Positions 28,201 through 30,712 of a stretch of DNA of 64,000 nucleotides are shown here, one piece after another. This stretch comes from Candidatus Omnitrophota bacterium. Lineage in GTDB: Bacteria > Omnitrophota > Gorgyraeia > Zapsychrales > Zapsychraceae. A program made the position numbers and the translations under genes. The notes under the pieces are model-generated. The model had not been told where the DNA came from. It was given only the letters and a program-made list of their open reading frames with translations, and ran no database searches. The DNA is taken from the NCBI GenBank assembly GCA_050250375.1, contig JBFWOS010000002.1, positions 205,547 through 269,546 of the forward strand, in the 5' to 3' direction. Position 1 is the stretch's first letter, and the number at the start of each line of letters is the position of its first letter.

Positions 28201-30712
28201 GGAGTGCGTCACGTTCGATCAAATTGAAACCCGCGTGACTGACGCGTATGTCTATAAAGAACAGTCTGTATCCGGTGATTTTGTCTATGAATTCGATACG
28301 CTCATCTCAGCCGCCGACACGTTTGCGGGTGAGACGCTTGTCTGGGGTTTGAGTAATGATGCCGGGACTTTTGATGATTGGTCGAATTCAGACAAGATAC
28401 TGCTGGCGTATTACAAATCGGGAGGCACATTCCAGCTGAAACTAATCAGTTCAGCGTCTTCGACGTCGCCCGGTTTGAATCTGGGACAGAGATATTATAT
28501 TCGTGTGATTAAGTCCGGCAGCACCGTGACGGCCTCCATTTATATTGATCCGGCGATGCAGGGAACACCGGTATCGACATTGACCCGGAATAACGTGGCG
28601 GACAGCTTCAGTTATCTGTATGGTTTCAGCACGCGGACTTATACTGGAACAAGCAAGAAAATGACCGGCGATGTCTGCCGCCTGAAGACGAATGTCAGTT
28701 CGGTATCAGCTCCGCTGCCGCCGCAGGATTTTGTGCAGGATGTGGAATACAACGCGGCCGGACAGATCACCAAGATTATTTACGGTAACGGAGTTGTCAC
28801 TCAAAATTTCTACAATGCGATGTTCCGTCTTACCCGGATTTATACGGTTGATCCGCTGGGCAGTCCGTTGCAGGATTTGTCTTACGCGTATGACAGCGCG
28901 GGGAACATCAAGTCGATTATTGACGCGGTCAACAGCGCCGACCAAATATTTAAATATGACCATTTAAACCGTTTGACGCAGGCCGTAGCCCCCGAAAGTT
29001 ACGGAACAAAAAACTATGCTTATAATGAGATCGGGAATATAATGGCGAAAGACGGGCGGACGTACGTTTATGGAGAAGGCCCGGCCGGGCCGCACGCGGT
29101 CACCCGGGTGCAGGGCGGCAATCAGCCGACCATGACCTACACGTACGATGCAAACGGGAATATGCTGACGAAACAGGAGTTCAGCGGTTCATTGACAGAA
29201 TACCGGTACGACGTTGAAAACAGATTGCTGGATGTCACAAAAGACAGCGCAGTCGTTTCCGAGTTCAAATATGACGGGGACGGCGGACGCACGCGTAAGT
29301 TAACGGCGGACGAAGACATCCGGTTTGTCGGTGCTTTGTATGAAGAGGCCAACAGCCGCGCGAGCAGTTATGTGTTCCTGGGATCAACGCGCGTCGCGCA
29401 GATCAATGACGGCCAGGTGTTTTATTATCATACGGATCATCTGGGCGGGACGAATGTCCTGACGGACGGCCAGGGAATCAAAAAGCAAATCCTTGAGTAT
29501 TTTCCGTTCGGAAAGATTAGCCGGAATGAAAAGTTCGGCACGACCGCCGAACAGGACGCCTGGTACCATTTCACCAGCCAGTACAACGACTCCGAAAGCG
29601 AGCTGTACTTTTACAATGCAAGATACTACGACCCGGAGCTGGGGAGGTTTATTCAGGCGGATTTGCTGGTCCAGGCTCCGGGGAATCCTCAGACCTTTAA
29701 CCGGTATACTTATGCTAACAATAATCCCGTAAATCTTGTTGATCCCTCGGGCCATGGTTGGTTTAAGAAGTTTATTGGGAAGATTGTTGGGGCTGTAGTT
29801 GGAGCTGTTGCCTTTGTCGCATCGGGATTTAATCCCGTTGTGGGTTTACAGGCTTACAGTTTAACCGATTCGATTATTTCCGGAGGGATAGCAATATCGC
29901 AGGGCGCAAACCCGTTTCGAATAGTAGGGTCATTTGCGGCGGGACTTGCCATAGGGTTGGGCACAGCCGACCTAATAGGCGGCATTTCCAATCTAGGGTT
30001 TCGAATGGGTGCTTTTGCCTTGCAGGGAGCTGCTGTCGGGGCAATCGGTTCAGCCATAACCCAAAGCGGTATAGGTTTAGGTGCGGCTTTTGGTGGAGGC
30101 ATTGGAGCAACAATGGGATTCTTTAGTTCACAACAATTTACTAATTGGAAAAATCACGGGAAGTTTCTAAGTGACAGAAATTTTGCCGCACTGAATGATC
30201 GTATTGGTGCTATGGCAGAAATGGCTGGGCTTACTGATGGTCAAGCTCACTCTTTTGAGCTTATATCGGGAACCGGAGAATTAAGTAGCGGTATTGCCGC
30301 CGGACACTCCGGTATCAACGTAGATGGGGATATTTTTGGTTTCTGGCCGAAGCCCGGACAAGGTGAAATAGGATGGGTATTTGGTAAAAGCGGTCCAGGC
30401 GAAATAAGACAGGAAGGGTTAGCATGGGCTATTGGTGCTGCTAGACAGGGTGGATTATACAGCACAAAAGTAAATAGCTTTCAATCAAACGTCGTTTTAA
30501 TGCAAAAAGCGAATCCGGGGGCTTTTTCCCTAGCAACAAACTGTAGTAGATTTGCTTTAGACACAGCAAGGATGATCGGGATTAATGTGCCAAGCAATCT
30601 GACTACATTTGGACAGGTAAATCCTGCTAAGGTAGCAGCTTGGTCGGCATCTCAACCAAAATATATTCAAGGTTACATGGTTGACATCCATTACCCAGGA
30701 GGTAAGAGATGA
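22298..30712 (+). CDS. giant secreted TcB/TcC-like RHS-repeat polymorphic toxin: SpvB domain + FG-GAP-like beta-propeller + TcdB-mid + YD repeats + 2x FN3 + unknown insert + YD repeats + RHS core + C-terminal variable toxin domain
   Basis: Start at ATG 22298 after GAGGAGGAGAG; signal peptide. SpvB N-domain (MAYPIMVPPGRGGIQPNLAITYNS...GMGWGL). DFNGDG/DINGDG propeller repeats at 23750-24620. RYEYAGGLWDSAQREFRGFG TcdB-mid. Many YDxxGN repeats. RHS core YYHTDHLGGTNVLTDGQG...YNARYYDPELGRFIQADL...NPVNLVDPSGHGW with autoproteolysis motif near nt 29750. Confidence 0.85.
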   Translation: MRQWAIVIFIGIFMSSFYPSSLYSMESGVRSGLEDLQVDPHSGSASMAYPIMVPPGRGGIQPNLAITYNSNNKNGMLGMGWGLETGAILRSSRNGIPNFDSSDIFVLNQNGSTQKLMKDNTTGFYVPEIEGSFLKIEKLAGHWQITDRSGIKYFFGEGSEDREEENGQVIKWALNKVEDLYGNFMEIDYYKNGNTLYPKEIRYTGNSQVPLSPYAKVVFEYDQTSRMDVQSTYIMGIKLVTAWRLQGIKVYAKVNGTDKLQRRYEMIYQSSPVTGRSLLTAVKQYGKDDASQLPVTAFAYEDNSEITEEYLPVVQFDSALTGGGDKMWYTMVHAGQLYDHNGATLYPQYNGNIFQGRFLPQGHIINWIGAFLKKSHTDHTWHWDINNTTDGRLWFQGVNDTAFKAWTNIYLSQQRQVNFNSSGAPHKIYMDQNYSQPLSGGNNTINAGFHLIEVVAYQQSGGEHYSFHVGTGLAGQVDYMNSVVVSAPGLPADFNGDGFVDIGRFTSNDGKIKVMLANGNSFGTEQVWLDQIAAGEGVLTGDFNGDGKADIVRFTKSSGNWKVALSNGGNQFINQPNNWLQGFGQNEEPSAGDINGDGLTDIFTFYKSGGQWKTRVALNQGGSFVSAPEYTYTIGNQSFTPIVGNFNGDGLIDFGTFDKLNGSWNILLNKGITSDQFNALAPVTNFGAGQVMVVADFNADGLTDIGYYNPSTGKISSRASHGGGFCNERLLPVTFTITDSGAQVQAQDFNGDGVADWVVYDTFGKFEIAYSNSHVPDLLVSVDNGIGAGTDISYNPSTAYPNTSLPFVVPVIESVRTSVLNETYTTRYEYAGGLWDSAQREFRGFGTVMVKDPENNYSTAYFLQDDIFKGRPQRQETYDSNNTLFSKTVNTWDSQVLPNGARFVFLKRKDNFVFDGNTTGRRTAEEFFYEENPQYGNLTRAVQLGEVDLQTGENTIGNDTRTVETVYVRNTSSPKWLIGLPGQTIVRDNAGNIVRQTWFYYDNHPNANDQPDKGLLTKKMDWAGGGAQDINPVTTYSYDAYGNLKTTVDPVGNQTSPANHQTTMIYDSVYRLFPVTTQNALGHSVQNKYYGIDGESLDDGQGYSGLWGQLKSTTDPNNQQGGRSYDVFGRTVKSVSPLDTINFPTTESGLEYLTDHVRVTGKQRVKHGQAQVITAVSFTDGLGRSIQSKSPSFLAGQYTVSGQTEYNSRGLAVKQYLPYFTTTAMNSINSINPANPHTSIEYDAMGRVVKSVNPDGTYSTMSYDDWRTVAINENGHKQESNFDAYGRLVEKREYAGADGRSPDYPLAPYVLYATTKYEYDSEGNLTKTIDAQQNQTVIAYDKLGRKISMDDPDMGHWEYKYDVNGNLTEQKDANLKTIFFSYDVLNRLTRKYDNNVLDVQYTYDSPADFNSKGRLTQAVYPGGDAEFKYDTIGREIESVKQINGMAYTVQRNYDALNNLVDVQYPDSSKVFYQYNDAGQVACVSSYEVSQPTAPVSPVLNNPVPGNMQVSLSWNSVSGADGYKVKYGTSASNLNSTKEANAGTEIVVDGLTNSVEYFFTVVAYNTVGESLPSAVKNATPQMPILGQPAIISAVPSNGSVALSWGNVSGANTYTVKYGTVSGNYPDTVSNISGTQYTVSNLTNGILYYFVVSAVNSGGEGMNSSPASAVPAAGGGGTMDIVRDATTTFTVTTETNVSMNHAVSASGTNRMLVVAVELRDSSLIPQTTALTYGGQALILAGRASNNSSSSYQLTSELWYLINPPVGSNSLQGVFNTDVNEIALQVTSLQGVKQAAPEVFGMDSGSSNAPGISVNTATNEAWVIDALTFKAAFESWVTIGSGQTLLGQNDMGNVFGGSSYKMVSPSGAAVMQWNTTFSDKWATVAAVFAPAPLSAALVQEDGNHYVYDYCPDLSPTAKENDWSRLGRMVIEFGRSFTGLFTAKEAYADELGTVSFNSFSEEDPTSQINRSAECVTFDQIETRVTDAYVYKEQSVSGDFVYEFDTLISAADTFAGETLVWGLSNDAGTFDDWSNSDKILLAYYKSGGTFQLKLISSASSTSPGLNLGQRYYIRVIKSGSTVTASIYIDPAMQGTPVSTLTRNNVADSFSYLYGFSTRTYTGTSKKMTGDVCRLKTNVSSVSAPLPPQDFVQDVEYNAAGQITKIIYGNGVVTQNFYNAMFRLTRIYTVDPLGSPLQDLSYAYDSAGNIKSIIDAVNSADQIFKYDHLNRLTQAVAPESYGTKNYAYNEIGNIMAKDGRTYVYGEGPAGPHAVTRVQGGNQPTMTYTYDANGNMLTKQEFSGSLTEYRYDVENRLLDVTKDSAVVSEFKYDGDGGRTRKLTADEDIRFVGALYEEANSRASSYVFLGSTRVAQINDGQVFYYHTDHLGGTNVLTDGQGIKKQILEYFPFGKISRNEKFGTTAEQDAWYHFTSQYNDSESELYFYNARYYDPELGRFIQADLLVQAPGNPQTFNRYTYANNNPVNLVDPSGHGWFKKFIGKIVGAVVGAVAFVASGFNPVVGLQAYSLTDSIISGGIAISQGANPFRIVGSFAAGLAIGLGTADLIGGISNLGFRMGAFALQGAAVGAIGSAITQSGIGLGAAFGGGIGATMGFFSSQQFTNWKNHGKFLSDRNFAALNDRIGAMAEMAGLTDGQAHSFELISGTGELSSGIAAGHSGINVDGDIFGFWPKPGQGEIGWVFGKSGPGEIRQEGLAWAIGAARQGGLYSTKVNSFQSNVVLMQKANPGAFSLATNCSRFALDTARMIGINVPSNLTTFGQVNPAKVAAWSASQPKYIQGYMVDIHYPGGKR

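Follow-up and report, generated by a model that had tools for sequence, protein, structure and literature searches.

The window analysed here is a stretch of 64,000 nucleotides from a Candidatus Omnitrophota bacterium (assembly GCA_050250375.1, contig JBFWOS010000002.1, positions 205,547 to 269,546 of the forward strand), and all coordinates without another locus name refer to it. The window contains a gene for an RHS polymorphic toxin, followed directly by a candidate immunity gene, and the subject of our analysis was the C-terminal tail (CT) of the toxin, whose residues are numbered from the first residue of the tail. The tail joins a large glycine zipper to a conserved soluble domain with an invariant histidine and an invariant cysteine. 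Our tentative reading is that it acts in the periplasm as a membrane-anchored thiol enzyme. The features on which the text draws, all on the + strand, are the following, with the basis of each in brackets.

22298..30712, +: RHS/YD-repeat polymorphic toxin gene, fused TcB/TcC-like (open reading frame (ORF) calls, Pfam, ribosome-binding site (RBS))
22298..22369, +: predicted Sec signal peptide of the RHS protein, MRQWAIVIFIGIFMSSFYPSSLYS (read from the sequence)
29741..29755, +: DPSGH, end of the RHS core, putative autoproteolytic cleavage motif and start of the toxin tail (motif; cleavage by analogy)
29756..30121, +: putative glycine-zipper domain, CT residues 1-122, about five Gly/Ala-rich hydrophobic helices (composition, motifs, hydropathy)
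30122..30247, +: linker, CT residues 123-164, SSQQFxNW followed by two predicted helices (conservation and AlphaFold2)
30248..30655, +: predicted soluble alpha/beta domain, CT residues 165-300 (AlphaFold2 and column conservation)
30305..30307, +: His184 codon, in a GH motif immediately ahead of a beta-strand, candidate base of the active site (invariant in all 17 covering sequences)
30482..30484, +: Gln243 codon, candidate oxyanion-hole or orienting residue (invariant, 21/21)
30539..30544, +: Asn262-Cys263 codons, NC motif, with Cys263 the candidate nucleophile (Cys 21/21, Asn 20/21)
30709..31344, +: candidate immunity gene, 211 amino acids (aa), predicted exported soluble product with two conserved Cys (ORF, homologues, hydropathy)
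30709..30774, +: signal peptide predicted for the product of the candidate immunity gene, MTNLLSRLLLSSLILISTISFA and then EE (Kyte-Doolittle hydropathy over 12 residues peaks at the N-terminus, at 2.45)

The RHS carrier gene and the limits of its tail

The ORF 22229..30712 (+) is real, with a mechanically assigned start at GTG 22229. The RBS GAGGAGGAG lies five bases 5' of ATG 22298, and because this is a strong RBS the protein most likely starts there, with MRQWAIVIFIGIFMSSFYPSSLYS. Pfam searches gave a layout of SpvB, FG-GAP, TcdB_toxin_midN, RHS repeats, two Fn3 domains and the RHS core, with RHS_repeat (E=2.4e-36 in 10 stretches, 123.9 bits vs a cutoff of 22), TcdB_toxin_midN (3.8e-23) and SpvB (5.8e-22, both above their cutoffs), FG-GAP_3 (4.8e-21) and fn3 (6.7e-15). 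As far as can be read from its sequence, the protein has the features of the TcdB/TcaC (SpvB) trafficking class: the repeats, SpvB/TcdB_toxin_midN, a DPxG[LWH] core end with a variable tail, and a downstream immunity gene.

The RHS core ends as RYYDPELGRF...NPVNLVDPSGH, and at the position of DPSGH the homologues carry DPTGH, DPSGH or DSDGH. Because DPSGH ends at 29755, the tail comprises 29756-30709, or 318 aa. An earlier note on this DNA had taken the tail for the post-cleavage C-terminal toxin region of an RHS protein, and both the presence of NPVNLVDPSGH and the confirmed RHS core bear this out; the coordinates that it gave, 29755-30712, do describe the tail but begin one base too early and run to the last base of the stop codon. 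The neighbouring ORF that the note had named, 30709..31344, exists, and its start overlaps the toxin stop codon as ATGA.

A further observation on the carrier concerns window positions 26800-28650 (about residues 1525-2140 of the RHS protein), where ~600 aa lie between the RHS-repeat blocks, containing the two Fn3 domains and then ~430 aa without a Pfam match. So large an insertion appears uncommon within an RHS shell.

The tail is a rare and conserved two-part module

The CT gave no match in Pfam and NCBIfam (E<=1) or among PDB sequences (E<=10), a tblastn search of plasmids with the tail found nothing, and searches of Pfam and NCBIfam with 21 family members and with the hidden Markov model (HMM) consensus returned only noise (DUF2459, HopBA1, ClfB). 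The earlier note had assigned the tail to no known family and had recognised no nuclease, deaminase or ADP-ribosyltransferase motif; our searches agree with it on both points, as they gave no clear profile match to a known toxin domain and no signature of those three activities in the CT. Judged from these sequence comparisons, the tail is a rare family contained in none of the searched libraries, and its fixed fusion of a large glycine zipper to a putative thiol enzyme is unusual, while the system that carries it, an RHS polymorphic toxin with an adjacent immunity gene, is familiar.

Homologues were found by three routes. A word-indexed search of 5.8 billion proteins yielded three fragments only, an exhaustive profile search of 1.84 billion representative proteins yielded 26 proteins at E<=0.001, and pattern scans of genomes and metagenomes added only five further loci. 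The 26 include at least one tandem-repeat artefact, P0021, which was rejected. The glycine-rich part was collinear with the soluble part in all 13 of the 13 homologues with enough N-terminal sequence, those reaching further upstream were all RHS cores ending in DPxGH, and one is a complete SpvB/TcdB/RHS protein of 2134 aa. Since the glycine-rich part is collinear in every sufficiently long homologue, the tail is one conserved two-part module. Identity of the soluble part to the window ranges from 32-76% across the homologues and the glycine-rich part is at least as conserved, which argues that both halves are under selection. The toxin-immunity pair recurs in three independent metagenomes, and one family member lies in a second Omnitrophota metagenome-assembled genome (MAG). 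A further member, with a lipoprotein-type downstream ORF, was seen at locus L008 (CAYJQW010000039.1), a short contig (2.9 kb) whose assignment to a 'Candidatus Saccharibacteria' bin may be mistaken.

The glycine-zipper part

CT residues 1-122 contain 28 Gly and 20 Ala (39% Gly+Ala) and only 7 charged residues, with nine GxxxG motifs and sixteen starts of the pattern [GAS]xxx[GAS]xxx[GAS]. Small-xxx-small pairs are more frequent than in composition-preserving shuffles (p ~0.02), whereas GxxxG alone is not enriched against such shuffles (p ~0.09). On the Kyte-Doolittle scale helix 1 (residues 7-25) scores 1.9 and is the sole helix to reach the classical transmembrane threshold, the other four scoring 1.0-1.3. 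Glycine-zipper toxins that enter membranes after being secreted typically have helices of such marginal hydrophobicity.

The glycine-rich part aligns with the homologues almost without gaps, at 39-66% identity to the window, a figure that compositional bias inflates somewhat, and it holds the conserved motifs GWFKKFWG, NPxxGxQAYSLTN, NLGxRMGAFAxQGAAxGA and SSQQFxNW. The near gap-free alignment and these specific motifs indicate that the region is not mere low complexity. The window CT itself matched none of the Pfam glycine-zipper models Gly-zipper_YMGG (PF13441), Gly-zipper_OmpA (PF13436) and Gly-zipper_Omp (PF13488) at E<=1, and the homologues score below threshold against Gly-zipper_YMGG and Gly-zipper_OmpA (for P0008, 20.4 bits vs 28.9 and 19.0 vs 27). 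Small-xxx-small runs on hydrophobic helices, which define a glycine zipper generically, are present in the CT as predicted from its sequence. The description of the first part of the tail as glycine-zipper-like, made in the earlier note, is thus upheld by the nine GxxxG motifs, by the sub-threshold matches of the homologues and by the presence of both sequence strings that it had quoted.

The soluble domain and its invariant residues

CT residues 123-318 are hydrophilic and form a soluble region of ~196 aa after the glycine-rich part. It opens with the linker, where S125, N130 and F137 are conserved and helices are predicted at model residues 4-12 and 18-34. In the alignment of 21 sequences from which all conservation counts were taken (alignment A3; His184 is covered by 17 of them), Gly195, Gly210, Gln243, Leu259, Cys263, Gly275 and Pro290 of the soluble domain are invariant in 21/21, and Asn262 (20/21), Arg272 (19/21) and Glu220 (18/21) are nearly so. 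The soluble region, put at ~180 aa in the earlier note, which recognised no toxin-enzyme motif there, thus holds a conserved domain of predicted alpha/beta fold that carries the invariant residues His184, Gln243 and Asn262-Cys263.

AlphaFold2 predicted the soluble part from the 21 sequences with a mean predicted local distance difference test (pLDDT) score of 80.8 and a core >90; the whole tail, run with 4 sequences, gave a pLDDT of 34 and was unusable. The predicted order of elements is a strand, GH with a strand, two more strands, a helix, a strand, a helix, the segment F-S-L-x-T-N-C, the segment G-I-N-V-P and a last helix. In the model His184 opens a beta-strand and Cys263 stands at the N-terminus of a helix spanning model residues 141-151. 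Papain-like and NlpC/P60 enzymes are recognised by a nucleophilic Cys that starts a helix opposite a strand carrying a His, and one invariant Cys together with one invariant His is what a catalytic dyad typically shows. The conserved residues His184, Gln243 and Asn262-Cys263 look like the active site of a thiol enzyme, and the predicted placement of His184 and Cys263 on the secondary structure resembles papain-like/NlpC/P60 geometry.

Immunity candidates and evolution of the cassette

The product of 30709..31344 has no hydrophobic segment past its predicted signal peptide. Its sole homologues are two proteins, 68% and 64% identical to it, both encoded directly after a toxin gene in other metagenomes, and the nearest named copy comes from a 'Candidatus Omnitrophota bacterium' MAG. 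The guanine-plus-cytosine (GC) content is 0.36-0.39 in the immunity gene vs ~0.50 in the RHS body, a drop typical of a swapped cassette.

When the ORFs downstream of the toxin gene in the window and in six related loci were compared, all seven began with a signal peptide or lipobox and had no later membrane segment (19-residue Kyte-Doolittle maximum outside the N-terminus <=1.1). Those of the six further loci fall into at least four families unrelated by BLASTP, and the downstream proteins of distant family members show no detectable mutual kinship, except for the pair at loci L004 and L009. By their sequences, exported immunity candidates of this kind fit the neutralisation of a soluble periplasmic domain. 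None of the seven has the sequence of an integral membrane protein, the type of immunity protein that goes with pore-formers of the Rhs and contact-dependent growth inhibition (CDI) systems.

Three observations on related loci concern the history of the cassette. At L009:1302-4302, compared with window 29756-31344, the tail is 66-76% identical, and the exported protein downstream of it is a homologue of the one at L004 (32% identity, E=5e-35) unrelated to the immunity candidate of the window, so that closely related toxins appear to be paired with unrelated immunity proteins. At L006:2-1761, compared with window 29600-31344, the sequenced RHS-core end and tail are 94-98% identical and the adjacent immunity protein 64%, which points either to recombination in the immunity gene or to a divergence far more rapid there than in the toxin. 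Directly upstream of the intact toxin gene of L009, positions 29-1222 hold a second, truncated RHS C-terminal fragment with the same N-terminal sequence as the intact gene, whose reading frame is lost after ARYY; cassette recombination has probably left it there as a duplicate in decay.

Resemblance to permuted papain-like enzymes

The order of His before Cys is that of the circularly permuted branch of papain-like (NlpC/P60 superfamily) enzymes, to which PPPDE/DeSI, CLN5, LRAT/PLAAT and YiiX (C92) belong. We compared the CT with DESI2 and PLAAT3, whose sequences were checked against databases. His and Cys are 79 residues apart in the CT vs 78 in DESI2, the CT motif HSGINVDGDIFGF is similar to HSGIEVYGREFAY of DESI2, and the CT pattern F-S-L-x-T-NC-x-x-F...G-I-x-V-P (within FSLATNCSRFALDTARMIGINVP) resembles a DESI2 segment ending G-K-E-I-P. 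An unconstrained hhalign comparison of alignment A3 with a DESI2/DeSI-1 profile placed His on His and NC on NC collinearly over 105 columns, at E=0.18-0.24 and a probability <1%; the profile was poor because the DESI2 search yielded only vertebrate orthologues. Single DESI2 or PLAAT3 sequences gave nothing with hhalign against A3, and Peptidase_C97, the PPPDE/DeSI model of Pfam, matched neither the window CT nor the 21 family members nor their consensus.

A Foldseek search of the PDB with the soluble-domain model placed CLN5 first (6r99_A, query-normalised TM-score 0.34) and the Bacillus cereus cysteine peptidase 3kw0 third, with SseI also among the matches, none of which was significant. We take CLN5 to be a PPPDE-like thiol hydrolase, and 3kw0 is presumably of the permuted YiiX type. 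Against BFVD, Foldseek gave weak matches, mainly to picorna-like and other viral polyproteins.

By motif and secondary structure, the soluble domain resembles a permuted papain-type thiol enzyme in the way it would work; this is a resemblance and not proof of homology. We could not place it in PPPDE, LRAT, Tox-HDC, Tox-PL1 or classical NlpC/P60, and several of these assignments are contradicted by the data. The H-box of LRAT/PLAAT (HxxxxxxxxxxxH) was rejected, the next strand (DIFGFWP) having no conserved His and Gly195 and Pro198 being the residues conserved there, and a classical NlpC/P60 or Tae-type amidase was rejected on the order of His then Cys in the CT and the lack of an NLPC_P60/CHAP match in Pfam. 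Two weak matches fall on the NC region: DUF2459 (Pfam, E=0.03, in 2 of the 21 family members), at the level of noise, and BtpiA (9jdi_C, E=0.28 in a PDB profile search), which we dropped as not significant and whose naming (9jdd; PMC13402684) suggests the immunity partner of BtpeA, an effector of the Bacteroides fragilis type VI secretion system (T6SS).

Some enzymes with this fold are membrane-anchored acyl-ester hydrolases or acyltransferases (PLAAT3, LRAT and CLN5), and the UniRef label on some DESI2 orthologues is 'palmitoyl-protein hydrolase'. We know of no member of the PPPDE/DeSI, CLN5, LRAT/PLAAT and YiiX families that serves as an RHS toxin domain or carries an N-terminal glycine zipper.

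Proposed mechanism and alternative explanations

The reading that we favour, with a chance that we put somewhat short of even, is that the tail is a membrane-anchored thiol hydrolase or acyltransferase toxin acting in the periplasm. The analysis shows the layout of the domains, their conservation as one unit, the invariant residues, a confidently predicted alpha/beta model and neighbouring proteins with export signals; the reading draws on these, on the resemblance to permuted papain enzymes with its weak Foldseek and DUF2459 matches, and on the recurrence of the toxin-immunity pair. The catalytic role, fold class, substrate, membrane topology and delivery route that we infer for the tail would combine as follows. 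On the model of Tc and Rhs toxins, autoproteolysis after DPSGH would free the 318-aa polypeptide inside the Sec-exported RHS shell. Once in the periplasm of a neighbouring diderm cell, the glycine-zipper helices (~122 aa) would insert into the cytoplasmic membrane as a tether and keep the C-terminal alpha/beta domain (~135 aa) on the periplasmic side as a thiol enzyme, with Cys263 as the nucleophile, His184 as the base and Gln243/Asn262 as helpers. The substrate would be close to the membrane, most likely an acyl ester of a phospholipid or lipoprotein, or alternatively an amide bond of peptidoglycan or lipoprotein. The exported soluble product of 30709-31344 would shield the producer by binding the soluble domain in the periplasm.

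Several results weigh against this reading. The comparison of A3 with the DESI2/DeSI-1 profile, which is of low diversity, scored 13.6 with hhalign, no better than the reversed-profile control at 12.3. No structural or profile match to papain-like folds was significant, the best Foldseek match having E=1.0, and the PPPDE structures 2wp7 and 3ebq were missing from the Foldseek matches. No TcA, T6SS or other delivery genes are encoded in the window. Conservation of the glycine-rich part equals or exceeds that of the soluble part, so that it may do more than anchor the protein, and an odd number of membrane passes would put the soluble domain in the cytoplasm. Because the RHS protein is itself Sec-exported, a periplasmic immunity protein is no proof of a periplasmic enzymatic target, and a soluble protein, ExiAB, is reported to neutralise the glycine-zipper toxin EsxX by sequestration (PMC12744356).

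The last of these points belongs equally to the first alternative, which the earlier note had put forward as a pore-forming or membrane-depolarising effector of a new family. Here the five glycine-zipper helices would oligomerise in the target cytoplasmic membrane and dissipate its potential, and the soluble domain would be a non-enzymatic module for receptor binding ('entry') or for solubilisation or regulation. The glycine-zipper motifs and marginally hydrophobic helices, together with the sub-threshold glycine-zipper Pfam matches of the homologues, are what a pore-former would show, and so is a glycine-rich part conserved as much as or more than the soluble part, with the specific polar residues R84 and Q91. 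There are precedents in Tse5-CT, an Rhs-encapsulated pore-former (PMC9637101), in the CDI ionophores, five-helix bundles with a glycine zipper and a separate entry domain (PMC11630599), and in EsxX, a glycine-zipper depolarising toxin sequestered by a soluble protein (PMC12744356). Yet a mere binding module would hardly account for a Cys, a His and a Gln that are each invariant within an alpha/beta fold predicted with confidence, and Tse5-CT needs only 149 aa and no extra domain. The immunity proteins differ as well: Tsi5, with two transmembrane regions by prediction, is recovered in the cytoplasmic membrane fraction (PMC9637101), and the protection against extracellular EsxX comes from the polytopic membrane proteins ExiCD (PMC12744356), whereas the seven candidate immunity proteins here have no membrane segment past the signal peptide. 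The new family of the earlier note stands; its pore-forming effector is partly supported but, given the Cys/His signature and the exported immunity candidates, is not the best single explanation, and we regard it as the main rival, somewhat less probable than the favoured reading.

A second alternative is that the glycine zipper permeabilises or crosses the inner membrane and brings the Cys-His enzyme to a cytoplasmic target, which it would cleave or modify, as in Tde1 or StbD-CT. The N-terminal GxxxG repeats of Tde1 are required to move its DNase into prey (PMC10240207), and StbD-CT joins an entry domain to a cysteine peptidase that works in the cytosol after redox-dependent self-release (bioRxiv 10.64898/2026.05.07.723447); the domain order of the CT, membrane part and then enzyme, matches both, and the reducing conditions of the cytoplasm would better preserve a free thiol at the active site. 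Against such a route, cytoplasmic toxins normally have cytoplasmic immunity proteins and the seven candidates are all exported, and the two conserved Cys of the window immunity protein fit an oxidising compartment, so that we consider translocation improbable. Finally, the idea that the tail is a non-functional decayed or orphan cassette, with a glycine-rich stretch that merely reflects composition or serves as a spacer, could draw on the unenriched GxxxG (p ~0.09) and the whole-tail AlphaFold2 pLDDT of 34, but the intact frame with its translationally coupled downstream gene, the near gap-free alignment with conserved motifs in homologues from many metagenomes and the near-identical copy (94-98%) in another sample leave it hardly any likelihood.

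If the favoured reading of a periplasmic thiol enzyme is carried further, the tail could represent an undescribed class of interbacterial toxin, in which a self-inserting five-helix glycine zipper anchors a new, highly divergent permuted-papain-like Cys-His enzyme at the periplasmic face of the victim's cytoplasmic membrane, where it would attack membrane lipids or lipoproteins (as a PLAAT-/CLN5-like acyl hydrolase or transferase), neutralised by several unrelated exported families and so far seen only on RHS proteins of Omnitrophota and a few other uncultured lineages. This wider proposal is speculative, and we would expect it to fail sooner than to hold.

New enzymatic activities, and new ways to cross or attack membranes, abound among RHS and other polymorphic toxins. 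Should the soluble domain be a zipper-tethered thiol acyl-hydrolase or acyltransferase, it would be a new biochemical class of antibacterial effector, the known lipid-targeting effectors being, to our knowledge, of the alpha/beta-hydrolase or PLD type. The eukaryotic PPPDE, CLN5 and PLAAT enzymes would then have a bacterial relative with a role in conflict, and there would be a clean system in which to ask whether an enzyme-fused glycine zipper is an anchor, a pore or a translocator. If the tail were merely another pore-former, it would be a routine new tail family. Omnitrophota are thought to include host-dependent or predatory nanobacteria, which makes their toxins of ecological interest.

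Other genes in the window

The RHS cassette is flanked by toxin-antitoxin genes. Upstream, at 21784-22158, is a gene for a nucleotidyltransferase substrate-binding (HEPN-like) protein; downstream there is an apparent truncated PIN fragment at 31500-31706, judged from the sequence only, and PhdYeFM/PIN pairs are found at 31772-32418 and 33219-33825. Positions 32530-33168 encode a secreted lamin-tail-domain (LTD) protein ending VPEPSGFLSLLAGGYLLRNYRRRNA, which is like a PEP-CTERM sorting signal. The window also contains two paralogous histidine kinases with a seven-transmembrane (7TM) N-terminal region and four paralogous proteins with C-terminal arrays of tetratricopeptide repeats (TPR), which jointly occupy 12120-14321, 16097-17743, 43485-47146 and 59507-63690.

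Comparison with known toxin systems

The toxin domains Tox-HDC and Tox-PL1 of Zhang et al. 2012, both predicted thiol peptidases, are found C-terminally on RHS or SpvB-type toxins, and the CT shares the H...C order of the former and the NC motif of the latter (PMC3482391). Tox-HDC differs in its SGxH motif, in the conserved D/N and C at the ends of three successive strands, in a predicted flavodoxin- or caspase-like fold and in the typical absence of immunity genes (PMC3482391). Tox-PL1 has the order NC-H-DxQ, with the Cys first (PMC3482391). No Pfam model matched the CT at E<=1, and Pfam should include models of Tox-HDC and Tox-PL1. We rejected Tox-HDC on this lack of a match, on the position of Cys263, which opens a predicted helix and is not at the end of a strand, and on the presence of immunity candidates, and Tox-PL1 on motif order and predicted structure. 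The permuted papain-like thiol hydrolases share with the CT the His before the Cys, the NC at the N-terminus of a helix after an aromatic-x-L strand and a similar order of secondary-structure elements, but there is no significant sequence, profile or structure match between them and the CT, and the second His of the LRAT H-box is missing in the CT.

Among toxins with membrane-active parts, Tse5 (RhsP1, PA2684) of Pseudomonas aeruginosa resembles our system in having an Rhs-encapsulated C-terminal fragment that is freed after the core cleavage motif (PMC9637101). Tse5-CT is hydrophobic, helical and self-inserting into membranes, and its immunity gene is adjacent, as in the window (PMC9637101). 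It is set apart, by description, by its 149 aa without an extra soluble domain, compared with a 318-aa CT with a Cys-His domain; Tsi5 has two predicted transmembrane regions where the window has an exported soluble immunity candidate (PMC9637101), and Tse5 is delivered by the T6SS through a PAAR-like N-terminus whereas the carrier in the window is a SpvB/TcdB-type RHS protein with a Sec signal. The CDI ionophores are likewise two-domain toxins, combining a five-helix bundle that has a glycine zipper with a domain that serves another function (PMC11630599), but in them the entry domain comes first and the ionophore last, the reverse of the CT, the carrier is CdiA and not an RHS protein, and the second domain is a receptor-binding entry module without a conserved Cys-His signature.

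Two further systems place a membrane part in front of an enzyme. Tde1, a T6SS DNase of Agrobacterium, has N-terminal GxxxG repeats before its enzymatic domain and a zipper that permeabilises the membrane (PMC10240207); its zipper is short and its target, DNA, cytoplasmic, whereas the CT has five helices in ~122 aa and an exported immunity candidate. StbD-CT differs from the CT in being a C39 peptidase with the cytosolic target GyrB/ParE and a CdiA-like carrier, and in having a protein-receptor (YajC) entry domain instead of a glycine zipper; it resembles the CT in its plan of a membrane-tethering entry domain, a linker and a cysteine peptidase toxin (bioRxiv 10.64898/2026.05.07.723447).

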